This document shows positions 22,735-60,278 of a DNA stretch of 64,000 bases, piece after piece. Position numbers and translations under genes: made by a program. Every line of letters begins with the position of its first letter. Within the stretch, counting starts at the first letter, position 1. The stretch is taken from positions 3,534,001-3,598,000 of the forward strand of contig OZ193910.1 of the NCBI GenBank assembly GCA_964276515.1. Reading direction: 5' to 3'. The stretch is from Gordius albopunctatus (Eukaryota). Under the pieces are notes generated by a model. The model ran no database searches and had not been told where the DNA came from. It was given only the letters and a program-made list of their open reading frames with translations.

Positions 22735-25615
22735 TATAGAAGGCGGTTAAGGAAACTAGTTGTGGAAAGAATGCGAATTACGTGCTGGAATGTGGGAACA
22801 TTGACGGGGAAGAGCATCGGGGTCGCACAGATGTTAAAAAGAAGAAAGGTACACATCGCCTGCCTACAAGAGACGAGGTGGAACGGAACGAAAGCTCGGG
22901 AATTAGGAGAAGGATACAAGCTTTTCTACAGTGGGTCACCAAATCGTAGAAACGGGGTCGGGATCGTTCTAAGCGAATCGTTCAAGGAAAAGGTGGTGGA
23001 AGTCAAACGTTGTTCCGACAGGCTAATGTGGGTGAAGATTGCGGATCAAGGGGGCTTCCTAACCGTTATGTGCGCTTATGCTCCCCAAATTGGGTGTTCG
23101 GAATCAGAGAAAGACATATTCTTCGAATCATTGGAAAAGGAAATACAAGGAATCCGACAGGAAGAAAGGCTAATTATTGGGGCCGATTTCAACGCTCACG
23201 TAGGGAAAGATCGCCTCGGGTATGAACGCAATCATGGAGGTTATGGGCATGGTCTGAAGAACAAAGAAGGGGAAAAACTTCTACAAGTATCCAAAGCATA
23301 TAACATGGCGATCGTTAATACCTATTTTCAAAGCGCGAAGATCATATTGTGACCTATAGAAGTGGGAAGCATTTTAGTCAAATCGACTATTTGCTTATAC
23401 GGCGAAAGGACTTATGGAGTATCAAGGATTGCAAAGTAATACCGGGAGAAGAAATCGCCAGGCAACATCGTCCCCTTGTTATGGATCTTGACAGAAGAGT
23501 ATTTCCCGAAAGAAGAAAGGTATATGAACCTCGAATTCGATACGAAAGGCTAAAGGATACGTCGACGAAAGAAGAATACCATCAAAAAGCCTCCTCACTC
23601 TTGGGTGCAAGGAAGTTGCAAAGGGACGTAGACGAAGATTGGGAGACGCTATCTAAGGACATTAAGGAAACAGCGATTCGTGTTCTAGGACAGACCAAAG
23701 AAGGCAAAGCTATGAATAGGGAACTATGGTGGTGGGATCAATCGGTTAAAGATTTCATCGAAATAAAGAAAAATCTATATAGACGGTGGCATAAATCAAA
23801 AAAGTCGGAGGATTATCAAGAGTACAGGAACGCAAAGAGGGCCGTAAAAAAGGCCGTTGCAAAAGCGAAGAATGCTGCGTACACCGAGATGGCAAACAAA
23901 CTGGATCACAAAGGGGGCGATAGGCTTATGTACAAATTGGCCAAGATAAGGGAGAAGAAAAGTCGAGATGTCGGAGTTCTTAAAATAGTTAAAAGCGGGA
24001 AGGGTCAAACCTTATTCAAGCCGAAGGAAGTGATGGAAAGGTGGAAAGGATATTTTAAGAAACTTATGAATATTGCAAATGACAAGGATTCCCTTCCCGA
24101 AATTGAGCCAAATATAAGCATGGTCGAACTCTTTCAGAAGGATGAAGTTAGGACACAAATGAACAAGATGCAAAAAGGAAAAGCAAATGGCCCAGATGGA
24201 ATGCCTATGGAAGCATTGCTCGGATGTCGTGAAGAAGGAGTCACCACCATGACGAACCTCCTTAACAAGATATTGGTAGAAGAGCGAATCCCTAATCAAT
24301 GGAGAGCAAGCACGATTATACCCTTATTCAAAGGCAAAGGAGACCTTCAGGTCTGCGGCAATTACAGAGGTATCAAGCTAACTTGCCACTCCTTGAAGCT
24401 TATGGAAAGAATCTTAGTAACAAGGCTGAAAAACGAGGTGGAAATATCGGCTAATCAATTCGGATTTGTGGCCGGCAAATCCACAATCGACCCAATCTTC
24501 GCCCTAAGACAAATGATGGATAAGTATGGTGAAAAGAGGAAAGACCTACATATGGTTTTTATCGACTTGGAGAAAGCTTATGACACGGTCCCCCGCGATT
24601 TAATATGGTGGTGCCTGAGGAAACAAAATATCCCTGACGCATATATAAGGCTTATGAAAAATATCTATGAAGCCTCAAACTCTTGCGTTAGGACGACAGT
24701 TGGAGACTCTAAACCTTTTCGGGTTAATATTGGATTACATCAAGGCTCTGCTTTAAGTCCCTTTTTATTTAATATAATTATAGACACGATAACGAGGGAC
24801 TTTCAAAAGCCATCGCCATGGTGTATGCTATATGCCGATGATATAGTACTATGCGAGAAAACAAGGGAGAAGGTATTCGAAGAAGCAGAAAAGTGGTCAA
24901 AGCGCTTAGCTGGATATGGTTTAAAGGTCAACGATCAAAAAACGGTATACATGGAAATGAACGGTACAAGCACCCCATCGCTGGATGACCACCTAAAGTA
25001 CCCAAAAGTAGACAGGTTTACTTACCTCGGCTCTATGCTATATCAAGAGGGAGTTTGCGCAACTGAAATCAATGCCCGGATTCAAAAAGGATGGCTTAAA
25101 TGGCGAAGTATATCCGGTGTAATGTGCGACAAGAAAATGCCAATATGGTTGAAGAGCAAAGCTTACAAATCCATCGTAAGACCGGTGTTACTCTAAGGAA
25201 GTGAAACATGGGCATTAAACACCACGGAAGGAAAGCTATTACAAGCCACGGAGATGAGAATGATACGGTGGAGCTTGGGGTATACTAAGCTCGACCATAT
25301 GACGAATGACTTTCTCATGACAAAAATGGGTATTCAACCTATGGCGGACATGATTAACGAAAATCGGCTAAGGTGGTATGGGCATATACTAAGAAGGGAC
25401 CCGGATGACGTAAATTGAAAAGTGCTAGACATGAAAATACCGGGGAAGAGAGGAAGAGGACGACCCCGTGTCACGTGGAAAAGGCAAGTCGATAAAGTTA
25501 TGAAAACTAAAGAGATTAGTCAAGACATGGCACTAACCCGGTCAAGATGGAAGAGACTCATCAAAACAAACCCCACCAATGTGGGACCAAATGACTGATA
25601 AAGAAGAAGAAGAAG
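22735..25615 (+). mobile_element. RTE-clade non-LTR retrotransposon, near full length with few lesions
   Basis: APE ORF 22762-23352 with one frameshift into RT ORF 23349-25196 (LYADD). Premature stop at 25194-25196, coding similarity continues to ~25597, then a (GAA)n tail at ~25601-25615. Related to, but diverged from, the 925-3781 copy. Confidence 0.94.
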
Positions 25616-28600
25616 TAGCTGACCCGGCAAACGTTGTTTTGCTATATGTACATTCGTTAGTTATATATTTTATAACATCTTCTAATTTCGAGTCAGGATC
25701 TTATAATTTTAAATAAAAAATGGAATGCTGGCCAGCAATTTCCAAAATATAAATTTAAAATTATTATATTGATAACAACATAATTAAACATAATTAAATA
25801 ATGTGTTAATATACTTACCTAAAACAAATCCCTGATCCGTGTATAACCCGCCATCCCTCCTCTCCACCCCACCGTCCTTTTAATTGATCTAAAATAATAT
25901 ACTATAATCTACACAATATTTCCAATATTTAAAGTTTTAACATAATTAAATCCATCTATATTGTGTTAATATACTTACCTAAACAAATCCCTGATCCGGT
26001 ACGCCATCCCTTCTCCTCAAGCCACTGTCCTATGAATGGATACGATTCTTGTATAAAATAATGTACACAATATTTCAAATATTTAAAGTGTAACTTAATT
26101 AAATCATCTATAATGTACTATACCAAAACGATAAAAACAAATCCTTGATCCGTTTATAACCCGCCATCCCGCCTCCACCCCACCGTCCTTCTAATGAATC
26201 TAAAATTATATGCAATAATCTACACATTTGAAATATTTAAAGTTTTAACATAATTAAATCATCTATATTGTATTAATAGACTTACCTAAAACAAATCCCT
26301 GATCCGTTACGCCATCCCTCCTCTTCACGCCACCGTCCTATTAATGGATACGATTATTGTATAACATAATCGACACAATATTTCAAATATTTAAAGTTAA
26401 ACTTAATTAAATCATCTATAATGTATTGATATACTTAACGAAACGATAAAAAAATCCCTGATCCGTTTTACTTCACAATTAATCTCTACGTGCTATGGAG
26501 TATACAATATTTTTGGTTAGACCGTCTTTAGCCAACACAAACAAACTGGATGGTTTACCCACGCGAGAACATGCCACATATAGTTGTCAGTGGGAAAAGC
26601 ATGGTGGGCTCAAATCTAAGCCACAAATAGACATTGTTTGGCCCTGGGCTTTATTAATTGTCATTGCGAAAGCTAATCTAATCGGAAATTGAATGCGTTT
26701 GAATTGAATGGGTACATCTGAGGGAAAAATAGGAATTCGTGGCAGCAATACATTTTCACCTCGGAACTTTCCATTCAAAATGGTGACTTCGAGAAGATTC
26801 TTCATGCATTTTTTAATGACTAATCTTGTGCTATTGCACAGCCGTGGTAGGTTTAAATTGCTAAGCAAAATTACCGGAGAGCCAACATTCAATTGTAAAA
26901 GGTGAGGAGGCATGCCTGACAAATCCAATGAATTCAAAAACTCAATCGGATAATTTACAACTTCGTTGGCATCACATACTGTATCGACATATTTGTATGA
27001 TATTAAGTCACCTGGCAACAACTGTTGTATCTTGGAATTTAAATCATTGACGTCCACATTTTTTGCTGATTGCTCTTTCTGCCAGCAAATCAAGATTGTT
27101 GTATTCTGTGTAAAGATTTGGAAATACATGGTGAATGAGAGCAGTTTGCGTCTCTACAATTGTGCAAAAATCCGATGGTAATATTTTCAGCGGATGCATC
27201 TTTAGGCATTTGAACGCGCATGTTTACTTTCAGCTGTAGTTTCAAAACATGACACCAAAGTGAGGATGACTTTAAGCAGGCTTTGATCTCATCAGCGTAC
27301 GTTGAATGCGGAATAACGGGAATTGTTTGTCGAAAATCACCTGAAAGCAGTAAAAGAGTACCGCCAAAAAGTCTGTCGTTGTTCTTTAGATCCTTCAATG
27401 TCCTGTTCAATGCCTCAAGCGAACGTTTGTGTGCCATAGTGCATTCATCCCAGATGATAACTTTACATTGTTTGGGCACTCTGGCCATGGACAATTGTTT
27501 TTTTTATGTTGCACATTGCTTCAGGGTTATTTTGAATATTAAGTGGCAGCTTAAATGCTGAATGAGCTGTTCTGCCTCCATCTAATAAAGTAGCTGAAAT
27601 GCCAGATAAAGCAACGGCCAAGGCGATGCCATTTTTTGATCGTATCTCAGCAAGAATTAGCGAAATTAGAAATGTTTTGCCAGTCCCTCCCGGTGCATCC
27701 AAAAAAAAGAAACCCCCTTGTCCTTCAGAAATTGCAAGCAAAATGCGGTCGTAAATGATTTTTTGTTCGTTAGTGAGTAGCGGGACATTGCGAGTAACGA
27801 ATGCTGCCAATTCTATAGTATTGTATTGTCGTTCACGATTCATATCAGTATTGATTAAATCAGATGCATTTCGATTTGGTGACCGCATACCGAAATGGCT
27901 GATGTTTAAATTGGCGATGACAATGCAAAGATCCTCAATAGCTATCAATGCTTCATTGTACATGCAGTCGGTGAATGGTATCGTTAGATCGTTGCTCATA
28001 TGACGATATCGATGCAATATATCATCAGTCATAGAATCTTTGTCATTATCCCACAATGTTTGTGCTCGGGCCGAAAATTAGAAGAATTTGCGCTCCTGTA
28101 CAGTTTAATGATGCTTCCTTCAGTAAGCATACTGTCCCAATGATTGTCGTCTTCTAGCAATCCTAATTCAAGGCATGCATCTCTATAGGTTGGATAATGT
28201 TGTCCATTTACTTTACGGATATCATGAAAAGACAAAGGGCCGGTGAAATTAACCAACAACAGGTGCAGATAAAAGCACTCAGTCTGTCTTGGATTGACTG
28301 TATATACACGACCTAAATTGTTTGATTTAAATAAACCGGGGCATGCATCAACTTGTGTGCCTTGCTTGTGCGGCATCCATTTTCTCGATTGCGCCCACGT
28401 AAAATAGCGCGGTACTTCTGAATAAAGTAGTGTTCGTGCGAAGGCACCAAAAGCATCGGAGGAATTACACAAAGCAAAAAAAGCTGTTAGTGTGGTGTTT
28501 GGTGGATTTATTTAACGATCAAAAGCCGTCTCGTTTGTGAAAAAAACGCGTTGGCCGTTTTCAAGATGAACAGCTAAATGGATAACTGCTGGATGACGTT

Positions 28601-31600
28601 CATGAATTGGAAACCCGAAAATTCGCCAAATAGCTTCATTGGAGCTGATGTATCGTCCAATTTGGTAGTTGGTAATTTCATCACTGTAATTCAATGGCGT
28701 AGCATTCACATTGGTATTTTCAACTCTAAATACAGCCATATCACTTCCTTTATTAATATATTTGCAAATGTATTTTATGCTTTTGACCGAATTGCAGAAC
28801 TCAACATTAATATGAGCATTGAATGTTTTACAGAGGAGAGGTGAGTATGGTACGACCCAACGATTGTCGATGTTAATGTCTGCGTTACTGATAGTTTTGC
28901 TAAATAATTGTCCGCCATCATCGGTACTTCATCGACGATATATAGGATATCCGTCCCCATGTGTGACCCTATCGTTGGTAAAATCTTTAGGAAAACGTTT
29001 TGTACACTTTCCATCTAACATGTAAGACGATGAAGGATTTAAAGCACCGCATGGGCCATGAATCATATTTTCGGTGATAATATCAAACAATAATTGATTA
29101 GTAGAAGGATTTGGTATTTCTGCGGATACTAAACTATCTATGTCTTCTGGGCGTATTTTGTCAATGAACCAAATCAAAATATGTGCATGAGGTAATCCAC
29201 GCTTTTGCCACACAATCGAATACATCCAACAACTTGCGGGGCCAAATATGTGTAATTTTGTTATAAAGTTAACGAAAGACCTTAATTTTTGTTTAAACAC
29301 ACGGGCTATTATGTCATGACGATGTATTGCATTTTGTCGTGGTAAGAGTAACGATGTAATTTCCTGCTATTTTGGGTTACATGTAAAGGTGATAAATAAA
29401 AATGGTCGTCCGTATTCGCGTACGTAAGCCATGGCATCCTGTATGTATTCTTGCATGTGACGCGGACTACCTACGTACGATGATGGTAGAATAATGGAGC
29501 TACCAATTTCGGCAGCGTCAGCGTTGGTAGCGATAGTGTCTCGCAGGTGGATGTATTCTTCAGCACGCAGCATTTTCTGGTTATAACGTAAGAAGCGTAA
29601 GCGCTCGCTCTCAATCTTCACATACATATCCACAATGAACTGCTGGTAAAGCTCTCGACAGCGTAGAATGATGTTGTTTTCACCGTTTCTAATCATCAAA
29701 CGATAGGCATAATAATCCATCGAGCTCACTTTTTTGCTTGTTTCAGCTCCTGTGATATGATACATACAAAAAAAATTAAAAATGAGTAGTCATGTTTTAT
29801 GTTGTATAAAATACCATTTCGGGGATCCCGTTGTTTAATGTTTATAAAATAACCGTCTTGCCCCTTCCAAAAAATGAGCGGAGATTGGAGAGCGTCATAG
29901 GAACGGTGGGTATCAGGAATGAACTGTAGATTATCATCTCTTTTGCGAATCACGATTTGGCGCGAAGCTGTACGGTCGCCAATCATGATTCCAGCAACAT
30001 CGTCAACAGCAGGTGCATTAAATCTACGTAAATGCTGTCCCACAGGTGTTTTATCAGGATAGATGACAATAGCGTGTTTGTCACTTATTAATTTGGGCAT
30101 GTGTGCTTTAAATAATTTTAACAATTCATTGTGCTCAGTCAACAGAACGTCCAGATCGCTGACGATGCGCCTGGCAAAAGGTGAATTAATGTGATTGTAG
30201 CCGCAACGTGCATTTACGCGATTGGCTAGTGCGCGTTCAGAGTCCTCACCACCCATAAAGTAAATTTGTAAAAATTTATAGGAATCGTTTGGCATTAGCA
30301 GCAGTGAGCCAACTTTGTGAAAAACTTGGCCTTTGTTGAATTAAATAGCTGACCGTTTCCAGCATCAGTTTTAACTATTTCTGTTGCTCCGAACGATGTC
30401 ATTTGGAAGCATGAATTAAATGTGCGAATTGACTTTAGGAATAGGCTAGAATCAGGATCCGTGCCAATTAGTAAGCCGTGCAATGGTTCAGGTGGTGCTT
30501 CAATTGCCGTTAGTTGTAATTTTCCTGATGCGCAACACATCCCTGGTGGCTCATTTTTAAATTTAAGTGCATGACAATGTGGACATTCATTGTCTATAGT
30601 ACCAATTACCACTTTGGAATGAGCGTAATATTCAACGTCAGGCTCATAATGGAATGCTAGTCGGAGGAATGAAGCTGATGTAAATGCTCGATGTACTTGT
30701 TGGAGTTGTTGGTTAATAGCTCTACGTGTGTTAAACACGAAGCGGCGCTCTTGTCTTTCGTCTAATCTTCTTTGTAGATTTAGTTTATATATAGTCTCTT
30801 GCGATTGTGATTCACGGAATAAAGCCATACTAACACGCACATCTGCATTATTTTGTAAAAGTTGTTCATCTGTTCTCTGTGCTCGTTTATTGCGCAAGAC
30901 TGCATTATGTTTTGTTCGACGATCTAAATTGGCTCCTTTGCGTTTTGCAGGCATTGATAACTGTAAATAATTAAAATAGTGGCAATTTAATGATAACACC
31001 TACACTTATTATGAAGGTTAGAGACTCCCAATTTTTGCTTATAAATGCTATTTATAATCAAAGTTAATTTTAATAATACATTGTCACTTCAAGAATTTAA
31101 ATCAGGAAGGGGCAAAACATTTGAAATAATTTAGGGAGGGGCAGAAGGCATAAATTATATGATTATAATTTATTCGTATTAATTTTTTATATTTTTTTCT
31201 CATTTAGGGGAAGGGGCGGCCGCCCCTCCCTGTCCCCCTTGGCTACACCCATGAAAAATCGAGAGCTTCAAAAAAATATAAAAATTTTGGTTTGAAAAAC
31301 TTTCTAGTATATGACAGAAGAAGCCAAAGGAATGTTAGGGTTTCTAAATGTTGGGGTATTTCAAATATGATTAGTTTTTTATTTGATGCTGTTTAAAAAT
31401 TAAAAGTGTATTAAAAGATATTTTATAAAAAAAGTTAAATGATTACTTAATAGTACACTTTTCCAGTAAATGACAGAAGAAGCCAAAGGAATGTTAGGGT
31501 TCCTAAATGTTGGGGTATTTCAAATATGATTAGTTTTTAATTTGATACTGTTTAAAAATTTAAAATGTATTAAAAGATATTTTATCAAAAAAGTTAAATG

Positions 31601-34835: not shown

Positions 34836-35112
34836 GGGCTTGTCTTAATATCGGATTCAGATTCGAACCGCGCGATTTTTTTTGTCCATATATCAGATTC
34901 AAGCTCATGGTTCAAACTCGAATGTTATTATTAATTTTACTCAGCCGTTTATTAAAAACAAGTAATAGAAAGAAAAAAAGCATAATTTATCAACTTCGTG
35001 ATATATTTGGGGAATATAATCATATTTTGGATGATAATGCGAGGAGTGAGCAGAACTTTTTCAAAATCATTAAAGATATACAGCATCATAAATCCAAAGT
35101 TATTGCCATACC

Positions 35113-36301
35113 TAGAGATGGGTATTTTCCCGGGAATTTTAATTGAGCGGGAATTAATGGGGAAAATAAACAATTCAATTAAAAAATAAATAAAAAAACA
35201 TGCTAATATACAAAACGAAATTCTCATTAAGTTTATTTGTCCAATAATATACAATATTTTATCACAAATTAACATCACATTAAAAATTGTCAATATCTGA
35301 ACTTTGACTATCGTCATTAAGCGAGGAAATCGATTCATCAGAGGAAGATAATGATAGCGTTTTTGGTCTTTCAAGTGCATATTGTGTCTTATCGAAACCA
35401 GCTTCGTGACCTTGTCATTCTTCATCCTATTTCGTGATTTAGAATGCACATATCCAAACGTAGACCATATTCTTTCAGTGGAAGCATTAGTGGCAGGAAT
35501 CGAAAAATCTTTACAGCAACTTCTGGCAACCACGTCAAGGGTTAAGTGTAGCTTGCACTATCCCATATAAGGCTTTCGGCAAATAACCCGTCTTTTGCGC
35601 GAAATTCTGCCAAATTGACAATAACTTTGGCTACATTTAGATCCGCGTCTTGAGAAATAATTTTAATACCCTGAAAGGCTTGGCCAATTTCTTTACTCGT
35701 CAAATGAAGTCCCCAATACCGTGGATCAAGGAAATTTGCCGCCATATGAAAATTTCCAGATATCAGATGGTTTTCTCGGCATTTTTTATGAAAGAAACTA
35801 ATATAAAAATATTTTTAATAAGTTTTAATCATCAATATTAAATATTTAGATATTTACAAATAAGTAGACAAAATTTTTACCTAAATAAAAGTTTCCAAAA
35901 TGAATACAAGGTCTAAATTAAAAATGGGAAATTTATATTAATAATACTAAACTAAATTCAAATGGTCCAAAAATCTAAATACAACTTTGATTAAATTGCT
36001 TATAAGAATTTACTTGAGTTTACTGTGTGTGTGAAGTGGAATTTAAAAATGACAACTGAAATTTCAAAGTTAGAAATTAGTTTAATTTTAAATGTTTTTA
36101 AGTGTTAAAAAATAGTTTCAAGTAAAATAACAATAGGCGGAAAAATGCAAGATATAGGTTACCACAAGGAAAATATAAAATTATATATGATTAAAATTAG
36201 CTAACAAATTAAAAATTCCTAAATTTTATGTTTTTTAGGGGAATTTATCATTGGGAAAATTCATTTTTCCCGTGGGAATATTCCCCCTAGTGCCATCTCT
36301 A
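35113..36301 (-). mobile_element. Internally deleted hAT element (C-terminal dimerisation domain)
   Basis: Ends TAGAGATGG...CCATCTCTA; AANFLDPRY and FSIPATNASTERIWSTFGYVHSKSRNRM motifs. No matching TSD. Confidence 0.8.
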
Positions 36302-36386: not shown

Positions 36387-37427
36387 TAGAGCCCTGCAAA
36401 GTCACATTTTTTCAACCCGACCCGAAAGTGTTTTTAATTTTTCAACCCGAACCCGACCCGAAAGCGTTTTAAATATTTTAAATTGATTTGCCAAAATAAA
36501 TTGGAGAAAAAATTTGACGCCACGAATTTGAATAATAAATTTATTTGAGAGAATTATTATAATTATGTATAAATATAATAGCGTCTACAATTTCAGGCCG
36601 TAAACTCGACCTCCTATCTTCTAAAATTCGTCCAGCTGTAGAAAAAGATCTCTCACTGGACGCAGAGGAGGCAGCAGGTATGGCCAGAAATTTACGAGCC
36701 AATAACCCTAAAGCAGGATATTTATAAGAATATATTCTCCACCATTCTAATGTGTCGTATGTTTCATCATTTTTTGCAAGTTTATAATGAATATATTCCT
36801 CAAGTTCATCTTTTTCTTGAACATTTTCATCTGCACATTCCTCCCAACCGGAAGAATCCATGAAAGACAAGTTAGCATTATTTTCTAAAATATATTTTAA
36901 CATGAAGTTATATGTTAAATACCTAGCTGATTATTTTCCTTTGATACCTCCCTTTCAACAACTGGCTTTTCCTTTAGACTTTCGCAACTTTTATCATTCA
37001 TTAATGACCTAATCTTAAGCTCTTCAGGCTGCAGCATTTTCATCTGTTTGTATTTCGGCGTTAAAAATTTAACTATCTTGTAGTACATATCTTGATCGAA
37101 TTTTTTATTTAATATTTGCTTGCACCTTTTGGCAAGACCATGTAGTTCTGATTTAATGTCGTAATTTTTGGTGAAATCATTTAATTTGTAAAAATATAAA
37201 AGAAATTTATTTAAAGTTGGGGCCTTATCAGCCTCAAGTTCTGTAATTGCCATATTGAATGGCGTTAAGAACTTTGTCAACTCATCAAGCATATAAATGT
37301 CAATACATTTTATCTTTGAAGAGTCCCCGGTAGAGGTCAAAAGCGTTTCGACCTCTTCATAATTCTTCAACACCGAGTCTAGCATTTTAAAACGGCTATT
37401 CCACCGCGTTTTTAAATAGTTCAATTA
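36387..37427 (-). mobile_element. hAT transposase 3' half plus terminus (left arm of palindrome)
   Basis: TRWNS, LEWW...YP.L..LARKFLAIPAASSASSERSFSTAG; terminus TAGAGCCCTGCA at 36387. Confidence 0.9.
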
Positions 37428-37920
37428 ATGAAAAATATGAATGGGTCAAGAAAAGGGTTTTGTGCCTAAACTGTCTTAGGCAAAACCATAATGCCTATCA
37501 ATGCAGGGCCGGAACTTGTAAGATTTGCCAGAAAAGGCATAATACCTTACTGCATAAATCATTCATTCATTGGCACGCCATTTTTATTCATATATCAGCA
37601 ATCCCTAAACTTCCTCCCTGTTAACACATTCAACAATCGCATCATCACCACACATTTTATAATCAATCACATTCATTCGCATTCCATAACGATACACATT
37701 AAGCAAGTTTTCACATTCGCAATCTCACATGTTATACGTTTTTAATTCATTCACATAATTCAATCTAAAACATTTAAATAAACAAAATCTTCAACATTTT
37801 GGTCCTTCGAGCCGGATATGAACCAGCGACCGAGAAATATAAGCGTAATGTTGAAGCGAAATGTGGAAATAAGTAGAAGTTATTGAACGCGCGAAGTTTA
37901 GAATAATATTAAAACGCGAA
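37428..37920 (+). mobile_element. BEL/Pao LTR retrotransposon pieces: gag zinc-knuckle fragment, LTR 3' end, tRNA-Tyr primer binding site (PBS), LTR 5' start (mirrored at ~39853-40345)
   Basis: EWVKKRVLCLNCLRQNHNAYQCRAGTCKICQKRHNTLLH (37439-37555). AATAAA then CTTCAACA (37789-37796). TGGTCCTTCGAGCCGGAT from 37800. TGTTGAAG at 37849. Confidence 0.82.
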
Positions 37921-38294
37921 AATATTGGAATCAGGCTCTGATTCAGCCATTCCCACAAGCACACTTCTCAGGCTTTCTTTTAGGATGAACTTATTGCCTT
38001 GCAACCTGATGAGGTCAACCTCACTTAGAACATTCACCCTACACACATCATCCACAGCTTGTCCATTGTAAGCCACCAGAGAGAAGTTCAAAAGATTGCC
38101 TAACTTCTCTCTCCTGTTTTTATCTCTAGGGTTTATTGTTCGGCTTCCATGGCAAGACTCATCTCCTCTCCAGACATAACAATAGTGTCAGTCATGTTGT
38201 ATTTAAGTAGAGAGCTTGTAAATAATGAGTATAGCAGTTATGGTAATTGGGTAATGGGTTTATCAAATATAACAATTGTAAGGCAGACTTTGTG
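37920..38294 (-). pseudogene. Endogenous viral element: internally deleted phenuivirus-like nucleocapsid copy with its 5' UTR
   Basis: ATG at 38195 (MTDTIVMSGEEMSLAMEA) is joined out of frame at ~38143 to the C-terminal RTINPRDKN... segment. CACAAAGTC begins 99 nt upstream of the ATG. Confidence 0.78.
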
Positions 38295-38327
38295 AAATAA
38301 AGGGAATAATTTAGTTTAGTCCGCATC

Positions 38328-38746
38328 ATGACTGACACTATTAGTCTTGCCATGGAAGCGTGCCAGGAATACTTCAGGAATCATTTGATCTACCCAACAA
38401 TTACTGAGGAGATCTATGATGCCATGAGATACAAGGGCTTTGATCCACAAATGATCATGTGGTCAATGTTCACTGCCCATAAAAGATCCCCACCTGTGAG
38501 GATCAACACTTTCAATTCTTCAGGATTTTTACACCACTTATGCCTTCTGGCTGGAAGTGCTTGCATGAGGGGGACTAAAGTTAAGAAGATCCTCCAAAAG
38601 TCAGAAGAGTCCTACAAAGAGGACATAAGGAAGTTGGTGGAACTCTACAAAATCAAGGATTCCACCCCCACTGACAATAAATTGAGCCACAGGAAGTGGA
38701 GATGAGGATGAAAATACCACTGACGAGACAACAGCAGGGGCCAGAC
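38328..38746 (+). pseudogene. Phenuivirus-like nucleocapsid N-terminal half (duplicate of 39117-39535, probably an assembly overlap)
   Basis: Appears identical to the copy 789 bp downstream, across the N gap. Confidence 0.6.
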
Positions 38747-38946
38747 NNNNNNNNNNNNNNNNNNNNNNNNNNNNNNNNNNNNNNNNNNNNNNNNNNNNNN
38801 NNNNNNNNNNNNNNNNNNNNNNNNNNNNNNNNNNNNNNNNNNNNNNNNNNNNNNNNNNNNNNNNNNNNNNNNNNNNNNNNNNNNNNNNNNNNNNNNNNNN
38901 NNNNNNNNNNNNNNNNNNNNNNNNNNNNNNNNNNNNNNNNNNNNNN
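38747..38946. other. Assembly gap (200 N)
   Basis: Run of n characters. Confidence 1.
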
Positions 38947-39116
38947 CTCATCTCCTCTCCAGACATAACAATAGTGTCAGTCATGTTGTATTTAAGTAGA
39001 GAGCTTGTAAATAATGAGTATAGCAGTTATGGTAATTGGGTAATGGGTTTATCAAATATAACAATTGTAAGGCAGACTTTGTGAAATAAAGGGAATAATT
39101 TAGTTTAGTCCGCATC

Positions 39117-39864
39117 ATGACTGACACTATTAGTCTTGCCATGGAAGCGTGCCAGGAATACTTCAGGAATCATTTGATCTACCCAACAATTACTGAGGAG
39201 ATCTATGATGCCATGAGATACAAGGGCTTTGATCCACAAATGATCATGTGGTCAATGTTCACTGCCCATAAAAGATCCCCACCTGTGAGGATCAACACTT
39301 TCAATTCTTCAGGATTTTTACACCACTTATGCCTTCTGGCTGGAAGTGCTTGCATGAGGGGGACTAAAGTTAAGAAGATCCTCCAAAAGTCAGAAGAGTC
39401 CTACAAAGAGGACATAAGGAAGTTGGTGGAACTCTACAAAATCAAGGATTCCACCCCCACTGACAATAAATTGAGCCACAGGAAGTGGAGATGAGGATGA
39501 AAATACCACTGACGAGACAACAGCAGGGGCCAGACAGGACCCTGTATTCATCTACGCCAACGCCTCCCTAGATGAGGAGGACAAGAAATTAATAGGCAAG
39601 GCTGCTTTTGCCTATGCTATCAAATTTGACCGAACAATAAACCCTAGAGATAAAAACAGGAGAGAGAAGTTAGGCAATCTTTTGAACTTCTCTCTGGTGG
39701 CTTACAATGGACAAGCTGTGGATGATGTGTGTAGGGTGAATGTTCTAAGTGAGGTTGACCTCATCAGGTTGCAAGGCAATAAGTTCATCCTAAAAGAAAG
39801 CCTGAGAAGTGTGCTTGTGGGAATGGCTGAATCAGAGCCTGATTCCAATATTTTCGCGTTTTAA
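39117..39864 (+). pseudogene. Endogenous viral element: Tenuivirus/Phlebovirus-family nucleocapsid (N) gene, frameshifted at ~39472
   Basis: N half: MRYKGFDP...RGTKVKKILQKS...IRKLVELYKIKDSTP (compare phlebovirus YQGFD...RGNKP..M..KMS...L..KYKLK.G.P). C half from 39475 in another frame: AAFAYAIKFDRTINP...FSLVAYNGQAV...R..VL..VDLI (compare AHSLYLLQFSRVINP...PMNAAVNSNF...RR.FL...GLV). Confidence 0.82.
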
Positions 39865-40345
39865 TATTATTCTAAACTTCGCGCGTTCAATAACTTCTAC
39901 TTATTTCCACATTTCGCTTCAACATTACGCTTATATTTCTCGGTCGCTGGTTCATATCCGGCTCGAAGGACCAAAATGTTGAAGATTTTGTTTATTTAAA
40001 TGTTTTAGATTGAATTATGTGAATGAATTAAAAACGTATAACATGTGAGATTGCGAATGTGAAAACTTGCTTAATGTGTATTGTTATGGAATGCGAATGA
40101 ATGTGATTGATTATAAAATGTGTGGTGATGATGCGATTGTTGAATGTGTTAACAGGGAGGAAGTTTAGGGATTGCTGATATATGAATAAAAATGGCGTGC
40201 CAATGAATGAATGATTTATGCAGTAAGGTATTATGCCTTTTCTGGCAAATCTTACAAGTTCCGGCCCTGCATTGATAGGCATTATGGTTTTGCCTAAGAC
40301 AGTTTAGGCACAAAACCCTTTTCTTGACCCATTCATATTTTTCAT

Positions 40346-41354
40346 TAATTGAACTATTTAAAAACGCGGTGGAATAGCCGTTTTAAAATGCTAGACTCGG
40401 TGTTGAAGAATTATGAAGAGGTCGAAACGCTTTTGACCTCTACCGGGGACTCTTCAAAGATAAAATGTATTGACATTTATATGCTTGATGAGTTGACAAA
40501 GTTCTTAACGCCATTCAATATGGCAATTACAGAACTTGAGGCTGATAAGGCCCCAACTTTAAATAAATTTCTTTTATATTTTTACAAATTAAATGATTTC
40601 ACCAAAAATTACGACATTAAATCAGAACTACATGGTCTTGCCAAAAGGTGCAAGCAAATATTAAATAAAAAATTCGATCAAGATATGTACTACAAGATAG
40701 TTAAATTTTTAACGCCGAAATACAAACAGATGAAAATGCTGCAGCCTGAAGAGCTTAAGATTAGGTCATTAATGAATGATAAAAGTTGCGAAAGTCTAAA
40801 GGAAAAGCCAGTTGTTGAAAGGGAGGTATCAAAGGAAAATAATCAGCTAGGTATTTAACATATAACTTCATGTTAAAATATATTTTAGAAAATAATGCTA
40901 ACTTGTCTTTCATGGATTCTTCCGGTTGGGAGGAATGTGCAGATGAAAATGTTCAAGAAAAAGATGAACTTGAGGAATATATTCATTATAAACTTGCAAA
41001 AAATGATGAAACATACGACACATTAGAATGGTGGAGAATATATTCTTATAAATATCCTGCTTTAGGGTTATTGGCTCGTAAATTTCTGGCCATACCTGCT
41101 GCCTCCTCTGCGTCCAGTGAGAGATCTTTTTCTACAGCTGGACGAATTTTAGAAGATAGGAGGTCGAGTTTACGGCCTGAAATTGTAGACGCTATTATAT
41201 TTATACATAATTATAATAATTCTCAAATAAATTTATTATTCAAATTCGTGGCGTCAAATTTTTTCTCCAATTTATTTTGGCAAATCAATTTAAAATATTT
41301 AAAACGCTTTCGGGTCGGGTTTGGGGTTAAAAAATGTGACTTTGCAGGGCTCTA
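40346..41354 (+). mobile_element. hAT transposase 3' half plus terminus (right arm of palindrome)
   Basis: Reverse complement of the left arm; ends TGCAGGGCTCTA at 41354. Confidence 0.9.
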
Positions 41355-43606
41355 GTATTAATATCAAAAAAGACCTCTATGCCTTGTGTTTATTTAAACA
41401 GTAACATCCAATATTTGCGAAGTTTTAGTAGGGACACATAATAAAGAGTGTCTATAGTTGTATTATTAGTTGTAATCATTTCAAACTGGGTTATTTTTTT
41501 CATTTAACCACCTATATTTAATGTAAAAATTAATTTAAAAATTTTATAATCTTACCATTTATCCGATTCTCACTTATACAATTTCGACTGTAATTACATT
41601 GTGAGGGGTATATTATTTTTATAGCAAAACACAATTTTCATGATAAATTCTTTACATTGTTGTTTTGCCATTACATCAAGAGATTGTAAATCTGGCAAAA
41701 GAGATTTAAAAATAATAAATTTGGATCCTCTTCTTTTGAGGATTTAGCCCCTTCTATATCAATCAGTCTATTGAGTTGATCAACAAACAGGATTCTTCTT
41801 TTACAAGGTCTATTTTCTTTATCTATATCATGTAAGGTGCTTGTGGTGGGAGTTTCATCAAAAACCTTTTCCACAAACATGATGTCATTCATTTTAAAAG
41901 TTTATCATACCTTCACACCATATAATTTTATTCTTTTCAACGCTTTTGATCAAATATAAACTTTGCTGATACCTAAAAACTCAAAATTCATATAAAATTT
42001 ACGCTTACGAAAAATCTTGCATCCTACAAAATCGCTGTTATGTTGTTATGCGTCTAAAATCGAAATCTGCTCTAAATCGGATATTAAGACACTGCTATGT
42101 TAAACCACGTATGACGATTGTTGCTGCGCATCAAAATCCGATATTAAGACAAGCCCTAAGATTTATCCTATTTGAATAGTTCTTTCTACAATACATATAA
42201 ATGCTAATTTTAACTTATTTGGATATTAAATTTGATATACAACAACCAACTTTCTCATTTTTTTACCTTCTCTAGTACATATAACCCTTATTAATTTGGC
42301 AGATTCTCTTTATATTTTGAACCCAATTCTAATTTTAATTTATATCCAATTCATTTACATTCACAATATTTATGCATGCTAATAATGTCAAAGTTATGTA
42401 ATCCAACCAGTATTAGCTTTTAAACAATATCTGAGCTTCTTTATTGCTTATGATTCATTTCTCTGTAAGAATTTGAATTTCAAATTTGATAGAAGTCTAG
42501 GGCCTAGATAGACGTCGTCAATACAAATATATCGAGATATAGACTGACCCCTTCCCAACGCATTTCTAAAAACAATTAAATCATTCTTAATAATATTCCT
42601 TCTCAATGGGTGGTCCTGACTTTATATTTATCCCTCCTCCCACCCACCCCCATTCCCACGCCAAAAACAACTGCGAGCTCAAGACGAAAATGCTACTAAT
42701 ATTTTATAATTTTATTTATTTTAAATTTAAACTAATTTTATTTAGAGCCACTTACTAGGGACGTTCATGCTTTTACTTTTACCCCCTCCCCTTCGAGAGT
42801 GTATTCTCGAGGTGCAAGACAAGAAATAACTACTCTATATTAAACAAATTTATTATTCTCCTGCTTATCGCTCCCGGAAAAAATCTGGCGTCAATACCCA
42901 ACTGTAAAATTAAAAATAAGTCGGAAGAAGTCTGGCGCCCTCTTATAAATAATATATTTCCCCACCCATCTACAAATAAGATGTTATTTATTTATAACGA
43001 ACAAATACTTGCTAAAATGCTGTAATATATGAAGCTGTAAATTCCGAGATATCATTTTTTGACGAGGAAGTAGAGGGCTGATTGGAGGATGATATCTTGT
43101 CGCGATTTTTTGAAGCGAGGGACAAAACTGTTTAATAGAATTCAATGTTAATAGTCACCAAGAAATTTAATTGTATCACCAACTCACTCAAATATACATA
43201 TATAACGAATTATTATAAACAAGAAAATATCTTCACCTCCCGCTCCCCTCTGCGTCTATTCCCTATCATGAAGCTACTCTATTTTTGAACAAATATATTT
43301 TCTACTGCTCAAATGCTTGCGGAATAGATCTCGCTTAATTACTAATTTACACTAAAAATAAGTGTGAAGCAGACTGACCCCCCCCCCCCCATTATAAGGA
43401 AAGGTAAGCTCTACCCCTCTACAAAAATGGTCTTATTTATAACCAGTAATTCATCTACCTATTCACTTCTAATATATTGACAATATACAAAACACAACTA
43501 CGCTTGCTTCGAATAATTTTCATATCTGCCAATTAAGTTTTAAAATTTGTTTACTAAATCCGTTTCATTCCACGCCAACTTTTAAACCCCTTATACTCAA
43601 ATTAAA

Positions 43607-45250
43607 ATGATTTTAAAACTGGCTTCACTCAATACTCAAACCTTAAGAGAACCAGGAACCTTGCAGATCCTTACTTTATTTGCCTCCCACCACAGAATTC
43701 ACATTTTCTGCGTTCAGCAAACTAGATACTCACATCGCAAAGTTCTCCCCATTAACGACTATAATTGCTATTGCACAGAATGCGGCCTTGAGACTGCATC
43801 AGGGGTAGCCATTTTTATAAAAAAGGAACTCAAAGTGATTAGCATCGACTATGTTAACAACAGATTATTAATCATTCACTTAAAAATAAAAAATCGTTGT
43901 TCATCAATTTTAAACATATACGCTCCACACTCTTCCAAAAATTCTCAATCGATGGAATCCCTCCTCCAAAACATCACAGATAAACTTAAAACTAAACATC
44001 TTAATATCCTCGTCGGTGACTTTAATGCTTCCGTCCAGCTTTCATTGGGTGATAATAATTTAATAATTGGCCCGACTAACCGAAACGGTAAACTGCCTAA
44101 AAAATTCTGCTACAAACACAAACTAAAGATAACCTCAACCTTTTCCGACCTTCCTCTTGATAACCTAATCACATACCAAAAAAATGAAAATCACCAAGGT
44201 ACCCAAATTGATCATATAATATGCCAACTAAGAAACCACAAAATGATAAAGAACTTCCACACCTTTCAGCCTCTCTTAAAAACAGATAATTTTGTCATCT
44301 CAGCCGATCTCTTTATTAATCCCTCCTCTCTCCACTCGTCTAAAAAACTGAAAAAATACCCATATCGAGCAAACATAATCAGGCATCTCTCAACTTGAGT
44401 CCAGATTACAAACAGACTCGAAGGCTCTTGGCGATCTTGCCCCCCTCTCAGTCAATGACCACAATTACACTTTAGCAAAGTTTTTCACCCCATCCCAGAG
44501 TAACCATCTCCATATCAACATTAAGTCCTGGTTCTCCATCGATACCATTAATTTAACCGAGTCCCGATATAACGTTTTTAAGGATAAGACATTTAAAAAT
44601 AAAAAGCATGGGTCCAACATCTCACAAAAAAGATCAAAGCGGCAATAAAAAAGGACAAGGCTAATTACTTATCAAGCAAATTAAAAGAAGTAGAATCTGC
44701 TGCTCGCACAAACAGTACACACACGACACACCATTTAAAAAATTCTCAGAAACATCGCCGCAAAATTTGCAGATAAATATAATCACAACACAATACAAAA
44801 CGAACATAGCTCCAGCGATTCTTTGATCCAAATGGAGGCTTGGGAGAACTACTTTCGTTCCATTCTAGATCGCCTTTATTCAATCACCTGTTCCGACATA
44901 TTCCTTGAATTCATTAATAACTTCAAAACACCCACCACCCCTTCTATCAGAGTAGAACCACCCCCCTTGAATGAAATAAAATACGTGTTAAAATCCCTCA
45001 AACTTCACAAAGCATCCGATGCAGACAAAATCACAGCAGAAGCCTTTAAAGCTGAATACACCCTGTTTAGCGAACTCTTGCATCAATTCTTCACAAAAAT
45101 CTGGCAACAAGAGATCATCCCCCACGCTTGGTCTACTTAGTAAAATCTATAAAAAAGAAGACCCATCCCTTCCCGATAATTATAGAGGGATCACAATTAT
45201 AAATAACATTTCCAAGGTTTTTATAAAAATAATATACAGGAGGATATATC
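43607..45250 (+). mobile_element. Decayed non-LTR retrotransposon (AP endonuclease and start of RT)
   Basis: ASLNTQTL, CVQQTR, SGVAIF, NIYAP, VGDFNA and QIDHI (APE); IYKKEDP...NYRGITIINNISKVF (RT N-terminus). Many stops and frameshifts. Confidence 0.85.
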
Positions 45251-48949: not shown

Positions 48950-51130
48950 AATAACACCCCCTTAGCATATATCTAAGGGTCCATCGGGTCTCTACGGAAA
49001 AATAATAGACTAGCGAATGGTCGGTATTCAACACACCCACACTCAATGTCTTCACTAGACAAGGAGACTAACAGTGTGAGTGTGGCTCTTTTTCTTAAGA
49101 CTATAATACCCTCTCAGCACACCTAAGGGCGCGCTACTAGTCTCTAATGACTTAACTTTTTAAATTTTGCTACCCCCATGGTCAACAACCTTAGATAACT
49201 CACACCTAGGCTGACCTAAATAATTTTTCGACCAAACAAGATCATTAACATTATATTTGTACCTGTTAAATGTTTAAATTTGCTATCCAGCAAAAAAATC
49301 AGGCGGAAAACGTAAATTATGACCAAAAAATTCAACACCAACTGGCAAACGTCTAAATCTAGGCGTCATGTTATGGTATAATCGACATAACCATGTACCC
49401 TCTTTATTAGGCTGTGCCAGTTTTATACCAATTGCTACATACCTCTCAACTTGTCCATTAGAACTAGGATCATACGGCGGCGTTAAAAAATGAATTATTT
49501 TCCAATTATTACAAAAATCTCTAAAATCGACATTTGTAAACGCTTTTCCTTTATCGGTTACTATAAATTTCGGAAAACCGTAAGAGCCAATTAATTCTTT
49601 TAAAAAAATTACAGTTTATTTTAAATTCAGTCCAACCTGAAAATGCATCTACCACTAATATATATATCTCTTTTTATTAAATTCAAAAAAAATCAACACG
49701 AATTCTACTCCAGGGATGATCTGCACGAGGGCATCGCGCCTTCTTATCCCTACGTGGCATGGCTGCCTTTAATTTACACATAGCACACTGCCGAACATAG
49801 ATTTCAACGTCCCTTGTAATCTTGGGCCACCAGACATATAGCCTCGCGAGCTCCTTCATTTTTACTATACCTGCATGCCCTTCATGCAAAATACTTAAAA
49901 TCTTACTACGCAGCTCAAAAGGAATTACCAGCTTATCATTGCGTTTAACTAAATTATCTTCAATATATAGTTCCTTAATCACATGTTTAAAATCTACAGG
50001 AACATTTTGAATTTGTTTAATATTTGCTAATTCAGAATTATTTTCTGTACTTTTGCCAATATCGTCAAGATCAGGGACTATCATTATTTGTAACAGATAT
50101 CTCTTTAGTTATATTATTCGCACTCATTCGTGATAAAACATCAGCCAAATGATTACTTTTACCTTCTCTATATATTAAAGTTAATGAAAAATTACCAAGA
50201 GTTAATAATCATTTCTGAAGTCGAGGCGAAATTAAAAATTCCATATTAATTTTCTCAAATAAAGCTACCAATGGCTTATGATCGGTATACAATGTAAATG
50301 ATTTACCAATTAAATATTCTCGACATCGTTTAAAACAAACCATCGCCAGAGCTTCTTTCGCTATGACTGAATGAATTAAGTTCAGCCTTAGTAAGCTCGC
50401 GAGAAAAATAAATGACAGGATGCTCTATTTCATCTTCTATCTGACATAAAGCACCACCAATACCCGTATTGGATGCATCAACTTTTTAAATATGCTCTTT
50501 ATCAGGATCAAAACATTTGTAGAGTTGCATCCATTACCTTACTACTTCGCGACGTTAATTGACTTATTCAATTAATCCGCGATTATAGAAAGTAGTTTAA
50601 AACACTTACCAATTTGCGAACTCTTTTCGTTTCCCTTTTTTATTAGTATTAAATAAAGTAAATTCTTAATTTAAGTTGTATACATTGCTCCACAGGGAAC
50701 ATAGAACTTAAGCGTACATTACACATCGTCAGTTATCCTCTACAAAGAGGACCAGAATAATTTGTATAATTTTCAATAAATTTACTGTAATAATTCATTA
50801 ATCCTAAAAACAATGCAAGTTCTTTTTTATCTACTGGTCTATTTATATTTTTTATCTTTTTCAAATTAGGTTTAACAAAACCGTCTCCTATTGTCCTATT
50901 ACATGAACCAAATAAATTACCTGGTCAGTACCAAAATTACATTTCTTAGCAGAAACTCGCAAATTTTTAATTTTAATTAATCGTAATACCTTCTGTATAC
51001 CTAAATCATGTTCGTCCTGATTTGAACCCGTAACTAATATATCGTCCAAATAAAAAAATACACCATCTATAGATGTTCGAGGCTTAATATTCTTCGATAT
51101 GTGAATCATCAATTTATTTCTATTCAATAA
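48950..51130 (-). mobile_element. Decayed Ty3/Gypsy pol (RT, RNase H, integrase)
   Basis: YLDDILV (50888-51151), DASNTGIGGAL (~50440-50480), LHEGHAGIVKMKELARLYVWWP...C..C (49683-50084), in RT-RH-IN order. Possible polypurine tract and LTR start near 48956. Confidence 0.85.
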
Positions 51131-51927
51131 TACGATAACAATATAATTCACATAAAATTCTTCAGGTATATAATGATATCCAATATTTTTATATCTTTTT
51201 TATATATGTTTGTTTCCAAATTAATAGTCATCATGATTTTTTACAATAAGCGCATCTCTTTTTGGTACAAGAGTATTTGTATCTTTCTGGATCGTGCTTT
51301 AGTCATTGATAGTTAGAGACCTGCACGGGCGGCCCGAGGCCCGATGTAAGGTTGTGTTTGTACGCTAAGATGGAAATGCCCTTATACATGTCAATCACAT
51401 TCAATTGACAGATAAACTTTGCAATTTCGACATGCGTCACATGACATCCATATAATTCAGTTTCATATAGAAAATTTTAGGCTATATAGTTAAATTAAAT
51501 TTTAATAATTATAACTGCAAATGTATACTTAATTTTGATGTTTTCTATTTAATTGTACTTAATATTTCTCTGTTCATCCATATAATTCAGTTTCATATAG
51601 AAAAAATAATAATTTAGGCTATATTACATTAAATTTTACTAATTATAACTACAAATGTATACTTAATTTTTATGTTTTCTACTTGATTTTACTTAATCTT
51701 TAAATTTGTATGTTTTCTGTTTCAATTCACTTAAAAAATATCTGTTTTATCTTTAAATTTCTGTTTTATGTTTGGATATACTTAATATATATCTGTTTTA
51801 TGTTTAATTTTATAGATCCTATCATTTGGTGGAAATAAATTTATTATTTTTAATCATATAAGTTTATTATAAAACAAATTTTCATTTTTTAAGATGAAAA
51901 AGGCAAATTTTCTTTTGTAGGCTCTTT

Positions 51928-58004: not shown

Positions 58005-60278
58005 TTGCTATGCAATTTATGGAAATACTTACGTGAATATTGCAAAACGAAGGTTGGAAGCACTAAATAAGTGTATATGCCAAATATCATAAAGGGGGAG
58101 AGAGGGAGCGAAGGGGAAGCTTTATGGTTAGTTAAATTCTACGGGAGTTGTATTACCAAAAAGTCATAATAGCAATGGTAGGAACAGGAACAATCATAAT
58201 AGTCAAAAAAAACGAAAAAAAAATTTTCGAATCACATTTTGGCCAAAGGTCATTTTTTTCCATTGGTCAGCAGCCAGGACACGGTAAAAGTGGATATAAA
58301 TTTATAATAGTCAAAAAAAACGAAAAAAAAGTTTTCGAATCACATTTTGGCCAATGGTTATTTTATTCCATTGGTCAGCAGCCAGCGGACGGCCAAAAAG
58401 TCATAATAGCAATGGTAGGAACAGGAATAATCATAATAGTCAAAAAAAACGGAAAAAATAATTTCGATTCACATTTTGGCCAATGGTTATTTTTTTCCAT
58501 TGGTCAGCAGCCAGGACACGGTAAAAGTGGATATAAATTCATAACAGTAAAAAAAAAACGAAAAAAAAATTTTCGAATCACATTTTGGCCAATGGTCATT
58601 TTATTCCATTGGTCAGCAGCCAGCGGACGGCCAAAAAGTCATAATAGCAATGGTAGGAACAGGAACAATCATAATATTCAAAAAAAACGAAAAAAAATTT
58701 TCGAATCACATTTTGGCCAAAGGTCATTTTTTTCCATTGGTCAGCAGCCAGGACACGGTAAAAGTGGATATAAATTTATAATAGTCAAAAAAAACGAAAA
58801 AAAAGTTTTCGAATCACATTTTGGCCAATGGTTATTTTATTCCATTGGTCAGCAGCCAGCGGACGGCCAAAAAGTCATAATAGCAATGGTAGGAACAGGA
58901 ATAATCATAATAGTCAAAAAAAACGGAAAAAATAATTTCGATTCACATTTTGGCCAATGGTTATTTTTTTCCATTGGTCAGCAGCCAGGACACGGTAAAA
59001 GTGGATATAAATTCATAACAGTAAAAAAAAAACGAAAAAAAAATTTTCGAATCACATTTTGGCCAATGGTCATTTTATTCCATTGGTCAGCAGCCAGCGG
59101 ACGGCCAAAAAGTCATAATAGCAATGGTAGGAACAGGAACAATCATAATATTCAAAAAAAACGAAAAAATAAACTCGGATACACATTTTAACCAATGGTC
59201 ATTTTTTTCATTGGTCAGCAGCCAGCGGACGGCCAAAAAGTCTTATTATCATTGATAGTAACAAGAACAATCATAAGAGTCAAAAAAAACTCCGGGATTC
59301 TAACCCAAAAACTAGATAAATTGCATAGCAATTATTAAAAAGTATAGGGTAATTATCAATGTTAACCTATTCAAAAACGAACAAAAATTTTTGATTTATT
59401 TGGCCAATGGTAATTTTTTTCAATTATCAATGTTAACTTATTCAAAAAGGAAAAACGAAAAATTAGGATTTATTTGGCCAATGTTCATTTTTTCATTGGT
59501 CAGTAGCCAGCGGACGGTCAAAAAGTCATATTATCAATGGTATTAACAAGAACAAAATATTAAATTAATTAAAAAAATAAAAATTTTGCCCTCTCCGGGA
59601 TTCGAACCCACATTAAATAGAGGCATAAGCCTTTGGAGGGGAACAGGGAACCATATAAATAGAGCCATAGGCCCTTGTAGGGGAGGCCATAGGGTAATTA
59701 TCAATGTTAAACTATTCAAAAACGAAAAATTAAAAATTTGGATTTATCTGGCCAGTGGTCATTTTTTCATTGGTCAGTAGCCTGCGGACGGTCAAAAATT
59801 CATATTATCAATGGTATTAACAAGAACAATATATTAATTTAATTTAAAAAAAAATAAAAAATTTTGTCCTCTCCGGGTCTCGAACCATCAATTTAGAACG
59901 TTCGCCGGGATTCAAACCCACATTAAATAGAGGCATAAGCCTTTGGAGGGGAACAGGGAACCATATAAATAGAGCCATAGGCCCTTGTAGGGGAGGGCAT
60001 AGGGTAATTATCAATGTTAAACTATTCAAAAACGAAAAATTAAAAATTTCGATTTATCTGGCCAGTGGTCATTTTTTCATTGGTCAGTAGCCTGCGGACG
60101 GTCAAAAAGTCATATTATCAATGGTATTAACAAGAAAAAAATATTAATTTAATTTAAAAAAAAAAAAAATTTTGTCCTCTCCGGGTCTCGAACCCGCAAC
60201 CTCCAGGTCGGGAAGCTGGTGTAAATAACTTGGTGGACGGACGGACAACCAAAAACGAGCCCATAAATTGCATAGCAA
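58005..60278 (+). repeat. Element with TTGCTATGCAATTTATGG inverted ends containing a satellite array (alternating ~108/129-bp units, 474-bp higher-order duplication)
   Basis: cattggtcagcagccag at 58261, 58369, 58498, 58607, 58735 and onward. 58215-58688 is repeated 474 bp downstream. Confidence 0.85.

Follow-up and report, generated by a model that had tools for sequence, protein, structure and literature searches.

Here we report the analysis of a 64,000-nucleotide stretch of a Gordius albopunctatus contig, referred to as the window, in which two overlapping frames related to phenuivirus nucleocapsid (N) proteins are embedded in a composite element flanked by hAT-type ends. The features of the element are collected in Table 1. 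The whole unit extends from 36387 to 41354, 4968 bp in length, or 4179 bp when an assembly gap and one duplicate are left out. The initial annotation had placed an N gene at 39117..39864: these coordinates hold for the N frames, but cover only part of the element. Features not described there are a second N copy with a viral terminus, a junction of tRNA, LTR and gag sequences, an inverted repeat with hAT ends, and a duplicate across the gap.

Table 1. Features of the composite element (window positions; strand left empty where not applicable)
Feature	Position	Strand	Basis
Left 26-bp hAT-type terminal inverted repeat	36387..36412	+	100% inverted match to 41329-41354
Left arm, inverted copy of 39630-41333	36438..38143	-	99.6% over 1706 nt
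Second, heavily deleted N copy	37909..38195	-	exact-match map; profile E 3e-7, positions 193-255
Exact duplicate of 38947-39535	38158..38746	+	100% over 589 nt, ends at gap edges
Viral 5' UTR of N segment (likely)	38196..38294	-	repeated at 38985-39083
Head-to-head centre, 33 nt	39084..39116		only short AT-rich matches (~12-13 nt) elsewhere in window
N-terminal half of phenuivirus-like N	39117..39494	+	125 aa from ATG
C-terminal half of N	39475..39864	+	129 aa, +1 frame
CpG-rich non-viral spacer, retrotransposon 5' leader (likely)	39855..39941	-	CpG shift
tRNA-Tyr match	39942..39973	-	18-nt primer-binding site 39956-39973 plus 14 further bases
LTR-like stretch, 178 bp	39977..40154	-	TGTT...AACA ends, AATAAA, 3 nt from primer-binding site
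Gag fragment, two Cys-His knuckles	40212..40355	-	CX2CX4HX4C, CX2CX3HX4H
hAT transposase 3' half and right terminal inverted repeat (41329-41354)	40349..41354	+	Dimer_Tnp_hAT E 9.7e-21

The motifs on which the initial annotation had based its assignment to a phenuivirus-like N (YKGFDP, RGTKVKK, LYKIK..P, FDRTINP and AYN) are all found in the two frames, which overlap at 39475-39494 and, joined with one X at the frameshift, give 248 residues. The assignment is borne out by the profile search proposed there: the joined sequence of 39117-39864 scores 30.8 bits against Pfam Tenui_N (PF05733), above the curated cut-off of 25 bits, which neither half reaches alone, the N-terminal half scoring 21.7 bits (E 1.8e-4, profile positions 19-95) and the C-terminal half 12.6 bits (E 0.1, positions 148-211). 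HMMER, run over the full set of 1.84 billion representative proteins, produced four matches at E<=1e-3, all Tenui_N proteins: the N of Cumuto virus, of Gouleako virus and of a termite phenuivirus, and one unnamed Logan protein. A better match to a cellular or transposon protein, named in the initial annotation as a result that would speak against a viral origin, is not among them, all four being phenuivirus-type N.

The two halves are colinear with a profile of 10 relatives, from which the window sequence had been left out: the N-terminal half scores 61.3 bits (E 7.7e-18) and the C-terminal half 49.3 bits (E 3.3e-14, positions 170-255). Shuffled controls (1000 per half, of which 774 and 735 scored at all) peak at 5.0 and 3.5 bits, respectively, a margin somewhat inflated by the fact that the relatives had been chosen for matching the query; reversed sequences score 0.4 and -2.7. 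Residues G37, F38 and P40, R81 and G82, and F170, N175 and R206 are invariant in all 11 rows of the alignment, while Y35, the base-stacking tyrosine ahead of GFDP, is found in at least 90% of them; this role is described for Tyr30 of RVFV in PMC4027202.

A homologue search with alignment retained 4 of 5134 candidates, two of them new, while a word-indexed search with the joined N as query retained none of 234; no related N locus was found in 8 stretches from IMG/VR, and no usable match to the N-terminal half in the ESM Atlas. One locus was retrieved among 175 metagenome candidates; its genes form a cluster of bacterial appearance, and it was dismissed as a chance match. Within the window, no other viral Pfam domain was found in 203 translated frames, and the relatives' profile recognized, among 1394 frames, only the four known N pieces.

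The internal deletion at the frameshift suspected in the initial annotation is confirmed by the spacing of the conserved anchors: Y107 and F170 are 63 residues apart, versus 81-91 residues in 10 out of 10 relatives, and no part of the window N aligns to profile positions 116-169. The plus-strand N lacks some 18-28 central residues, including the T-L-x-R motif and the following helix found in the 10 relatives. This region is needed for an intact protein: the sequence is of phenuiviral origin, but the copy is not an intact N. The first ~30 codons of the C-terminal half are acidic and not homologous to N; the corresponding stretch, 39475-39560, has no match in N, whichever frame is read, or elsewhere in the window, with the exception of 9 nt common to the 5' piece of the minus-strand copy. 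The earlier remark that 39475-39681 was absent from the list of open reading frames is accounted for by the first in-frame start of this half, a TTG at 39682. At the opposite end, where CpG-rich sequence begins at 39855, the last few codons are likely non-viral. No XXXYYYZ slippery heptamer was found in 39430-39500, and programmed frameshifting was rejected on this ground; any read-through product would in any case still lack the central segment.

The second N copy, on the minus strand, begins with an ATG at 38195, and its first codons are joined at 38144/38143, with about 1 nt of microhomology, to the C-terminal part. Positions 38286-38294, 99 nt ahead of the ATG, carry 9 of the 10 bases of the phenuivirid segment terminus ACACAAAG(U/A)C, a conserved decamer given in PMC8148189 and PMC6001614, only the first base being absent; the probability of such a match by chance is about 0.003 for 200 nt on both strands. 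This copy also contains 21 nt after codon 5 which are missing from the plus-strand copy; the latter has no viral UTR and carries the frameshift. The two arms are thus derived from one template, of which different parts were lost. Neither arm holds an intact N frame.

The sequence following the N frames reads, on the minus strand, as a gag piece, an LTR end, 3 nt, a primer-binding site, 14 extra bases, a leader and antisense viral sequence up to the segment end. The limit of the viral portion, at about 39855, is marked by a change in CpG observed/expected ratio, from 0.14 in the N frames to 2.59 in 39844-39975. As in LTR retrotransposons, a TG..CA end is followed by an 18-nt primer-binding site for a mature tRNA; a second LTR copy was not found outside the inverted arm, and no RT domain within the unit. 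The two Gag knuckles correspond to sub-threshold Pfam zinc-knuckle matches (E 0.58-0.64), and the best PDB matches of the fragment, weak as they are (E 0.03), are retroviral nucleocapsid knuckles. By its knuckle pattern we take the fragment to be BEL/Pao-like; confirmation of such features was not found in the literature. The gag query also retrieved, as 1 of 11 candidates, a tailed-phage contig, which was discarded.

The tRNA match is longer than a usual primer-binding site: 31 of 32 bases are complementary to mature tRNA-Tyr, including the post-transcriptional CCA, an identity derived from six eukaryote-type tRNA-Tyr-like loci rather than from the host's own gene, and called tRNA-Tyr by ARAGORN for one of the six. 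These loci reside in contigs assigned to bacterial genome bins; the genes are eukaryote-type and intron-containing, and likely reflect bin contamination. Rfam analysis of 39850-40050 gave two chance matches and no tRNA, and no primer-binding-site pattern was found in viral contigs. The single mismatch corresponds to tRNA position 58 (window 39955). This position is an m1A, at which reverse transcriptase normally stops after 18 bases. Read-through of m1A by reverse transcriptase leads to misincorporation, according to PMC4787781, while the 3' end of tRNA-Tyr(GTA) with its CCA is given in PMC12095417 and PMC13537249. As the mismatch falls precisely where read-through misincorporates, the 14-base extension is likely a fossil read-through, which may predate the capture; the chance that one substitution in 32 bases hits position 58 is about 3%. 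Extension and mismatch may, alternatively, have been passed down throughout the retrotransposon family, or the mismatch may be an ordinary substitution.

In the assembly, N copies, spacer, tRNA match and retrotransposon pieces are part of a near-perfect 1.7-kb inverted repeat, whose arms face outward from the 33-nt centre. The left arm contains the N end, the spacer, the tRNA match, the LTR-like end, the gag fragment and the hAT 3' half, and differs from the right one by one substitution and one 2-nt indel in about 1690 nt, plus three substitutions at the outer border. Beyond it, left-specific subterminal sequence runs to 36437, and the first 10 bases of the left end are found nowhere else in the window. 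The hAT transposase is frameshifted and split in two frames; a C-terminal dimerisation domain and 26-bp terminal inverted repeats identify the family. Insertion of hAT elements produces an 8-bp target-site duplication. None was found around the unit, the flanks CCTTGAAT and GTATTAAT agreeing at 4 of 8 bases, so that either the unit was not inserted as one piece, or a flank changed later; this argues against a clean single hAT insertion. The window contains one gap, at 38747-38946 (200 N), and the centre is found on both sides of it. Because the exact duplicate at 38158-38746 ends precisely at the gap edges, it looks like unmerged contig ends, and likely represents an overlap rather than a real third copy.

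Other hAT-related sequences were observed in the window. Subterminal-type repeats resembling those of this element are found at 22153-22271, and further dimerisation-domain remnants at 34952-35557 and 6926-7180, both on the minus strand; no similarity was found between the remnant at 34955-35557 and the middle part of this hAT (E 0.07).

From base 1 to 38746 the window is free of gaps, so that N pieces lie on the same contig as the host DPAGT1 gene and transposons, in agreement with the endogenous status originally proposed. The best relative of DPAGT1, at 76%, is labelled 'Gordion...', while the other 119 matches listed are at 52-59%; Gordionus is a horsehair worm, so that this one gene points to a likely nematomorph host. 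The gene (11790-13004, plus strand) is intronless (Pfam E 1.6e-25) and has a CpG ratio of 0.08, versus 0.89 for the whole window. Its GC3 is 0.24, compared to 0.55 and 0.48 in the two N halves. Since, to our knowledge, negative-strand RNA viruses have no DNA stage, N sequence in a chromosomal contig points to an endogenous viral element (EVE); as judged from its sequence, the locus is an EVE of non-retroviral origin, derived from a very divergent phenuivirus-like N.

Other features were noted in the window. Non-LTR retrotransposon remnants are found at 935-3792 (minus strand), 22639-25196 and 43586-44398 (both plus strand), all with an endonuclease and the first two with an RT; a fragmented Helitron with Helitron_like_N and PIF1 matches occupies 26587-30999 (minus strand), and MULE/SWIM-type transposase remnants lie at 19038-20024 and 6226-6453 (both minus strand). 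A decayed LTR-retrotransposon pol at 49286-51199 (minus strand) retains RT, RNase H and integrase pieces, with no match linking it to the LTR of the EVE. A 237-bp tandem array at 58136-59290, with related arrays at 20932-21691, accounts for a spurious open frame of 351 aa, and weak Pfam matches mark a WD40-like exon or fragment at 63031-63327 (minus strand).

Absence of internal stops had been taken in the initial annotation as a sign of recent integration: both halves are indeed open, but this is weak evidence of age, because, with neutral divergence set to 5%, both remain open in 31% of 2000 simulations, and with 10% still in 12%. As the arms are nearly identical, the duplication looks recent, unless their likeness reflects an artefact or gene conversion; this likeness dates the duplication only, not the capture.

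The divergence of the lineage, claimed at the outset, is evident at the protein level. Full-length identity of the window N to the four nearest proteins is 22-26%; with goukoviruses it is 22-24%, versus 41% between the N of Cumuto and Gouleako viruses. The motifs YxGFDP, MRGxK and FDRxINP are common to the window N, goukovirus N and the N of the Hodotermopsis sjostedti phenuivirus. In a sparse tree of 7 taxa, which contained no phlebovirus, tenuivirus or nematode-virus N, the window N joins goukoviruses and the termite phenuivirus with support 98/99, outside the Cumuto and Gouleako pair, on a long branch (1.73) flagged as unsure by the tree program. The AlphaFold model of the window N is poor (pLDDT 46). 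Its matches are consistent in identity: among Foldseek PDB ranks 1-39, the 21 rows listed are all phlebovirus or bandavirus N (best E 1.7e-3), and all 35 named rows of 50 in BFVD are bunyaviral N, the other 15 being unnamed; VIA comparison gave Z 8.9 and 8.1 (rmsd ~8 A), the next value being 5.8. These fold matches are not independent evidence, because the alignment underlying the model consisted of N proteins.

Some alternative explanations concern the nature of the N sequence itself. A non-viral origin, either by chance match or from a cellular or transposon protein, might be argued from the failure of each half alone to reach the Pfam cut-off, from the empty word-indexed search with the read-through, and from the lack of a usable ESM Atlas match for the N-terminal half; it is refuted by the Tenui_N score of the read-through, the identity of all four HMMER matches, the colinearity of both halves with one family, the shuffle control and the terminal motif. 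Retention of the locus for a truncated N protein of 125 aa interfering with the virus is very improbable: the N-terminal half does begin with an ATG and stay open for 125 codons, but at low divergence chance alone can keep such short frames open, the plus-strand copy no longer has a viral UTR, and no orthologue was found in the homologue search, IMG/VR or metagenomes.

Other alternatives accept the EVE, and question its structure or its source. The EVE could be real but single, the inverted arm being an assembly or library artefact, either a foldback chimera or two joined haplotypes, helped by the contig break at 38747. The very few differences between the arms, the duplicate stopping at the gap edges and the missing target-site duplication speak for such an artefact, but we regard it as unlikely: a viral UTR, 21 additional nt and a distinct subterminal end are peculiar to the left arm, which continues into unique flank, and the centre is present on both sides of the gap. 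As to the source, horsehair worms are parasites developing inside arthropods, and Cumuto and Gouleako viruses are mosquito-associated. The nearest named relatives being these two and a termite phenuivirus, the virus might have been one of the worm's arthropod host, its cDNA having moved sideways into the worm germ line, possibly on the hAT element. At an identity of only 22-26%, however, the insect bias of databases can explain such neighbours; the subterminal motif recurs at 22154-22231, indicating that a related hAT element is resident; and Phenuiviridae occur in nematodes, as reported in PMC12770441. Sideways transfer is thus rather improbable, and the virus likely infected the horsehair worm itself.

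Our preferred reading, to which we assign a probability of about 0.7, is that the locus is a broken chromosomal copy of a phenuivirus-like N, likely acquired through an LTR retrotransposon, later likely duplicated head-to-head inside a hAT element, and likely without a working nucleocapsid. The virus would have replicated in nematomorph germ-line cells, where a tRNA-Tyr-primed, BEL/Pao-like reverse transcriptase would have switched template to viral S-segment RNA: the junction is seen in the sequence, and the presumed product is an LTR end, a primer-binding site, a ~90-nt leader and antisense virus up to the segment terminus. The captured piece would then have come inside the hAT transposase gene, a junction also seen. 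Finally, aberrant hAT repair or transposition may have generated the inverted duplication present in the assembly, with the arms losing different parts of N.

The antisense orientation would be compatible with two routes: the minus strand was made on the viral genome strand, or plus-strand synthesis went on along N mRNA. The 33-nt centre and the absence of the first terminal base would be in keeping with a putative cap-snatched mRNA; the centre may be a remnant of its leader, or filler. LTR/virus hybrids arise by copy-choice in mosquito cells, as described in PMC6797480, and for the switch of mosquito LTR elements to viral RNA 10.1101/127498 is a further source. The position of the viral strand antisense to the LTR element counts against the capture model, EVE-LTR pairs in Aedes being enriched on the same strand according to 10.1101/127498.

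In its present state, the locus is best regarded as non-coding. A putative read-through transcript would fold into a 1.7-kb hairpin, of which ~220 bp would be viral. In a more speculative and improbable view, the foldback with hAT ends could be a mobile, heritable antiviral hairpin cassette, movable by hAT transposase and giving rise to small RNAs directed at virus, LTR element and hAT family at once; in this same doubtful picture, the tRNA read-through would mark the template switch of a BEL/Pao element onto phenuivirus RNA.

In maize, the Mu killer and Ac killer loci contain an inverted duplication of a deleted DNA transposon, which could yield hairpin RNA. An inverted duplication of a deleted DNA transposon is also found here, where hairpin silencing is putative; in contrast to the maize loci, the arms contain retrotransposon and viral sequence as well. 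Goukovirus N and the N of the termite phenuivirus, among the best matches, remain only 22-26% identical to the window N, which sits on a long branch.

Phenuivirus N EVEs, and their link with LTR elements, are already well known. Ixodid ticks carry Phenuiviridae-like nucleocapsid EVEs, assorting with Ixovirus, Phlebovirus and Uukuvirus, as reported in PMC10675110: these, too, are phenuivirus N genes copied into invertebrate chromosomes, but are found in arthropods and lie near named genera, whereas the horsehair-worm N is far from them. For Nematomorpha, no report of a phenuivirus or EVE was found in the literature covered, mostly outside subscription journals; PMC11097642, which sampled the phylum among 31, names it only in passing, and its supplements may list viruses of this phylum. 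The locus likely gives direct evidence that a deep, as yet unnamed lineage of phenuiviruses is associated with Nematomorpha, and its interest lies in a likely new host phylum, an unnamed lineage, and the junction of a likely BEL/Pao element with a phenuivirus.

The LTR/virus hybrids and nrEVEs of Aedes, for which PMC6797480 and 10.1101/127498 list Pao/BEL among the partners, also join virus to LTR sequence without long homology. Here, in contrast, the virus is antisense, the segment terminus is kept, and a hAT-ended inverted repeat surrounds the junction. In the belpaoviruses of nematodes, a related worm phylum, phenuivirus sequence is also joined to a BEL/Pao-type element: Atlas virus, as described in PMC9094657, has a phlebovirus-like Env, whose functional GN-GC env is read in sense as part of the polyprotein, while the horsehair-worm element holds a dead antisense N fragment. 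Whether nematode belpaoviruses acquired phlebovirus-like RNA through splicing or because it served reverse transcriptase as a substrate is called unclear in that report, and a readable capture junction, in which LTR end, primer-binding site and viral segment end are all preserved, bears on the origin of the belpaovirus envelope.
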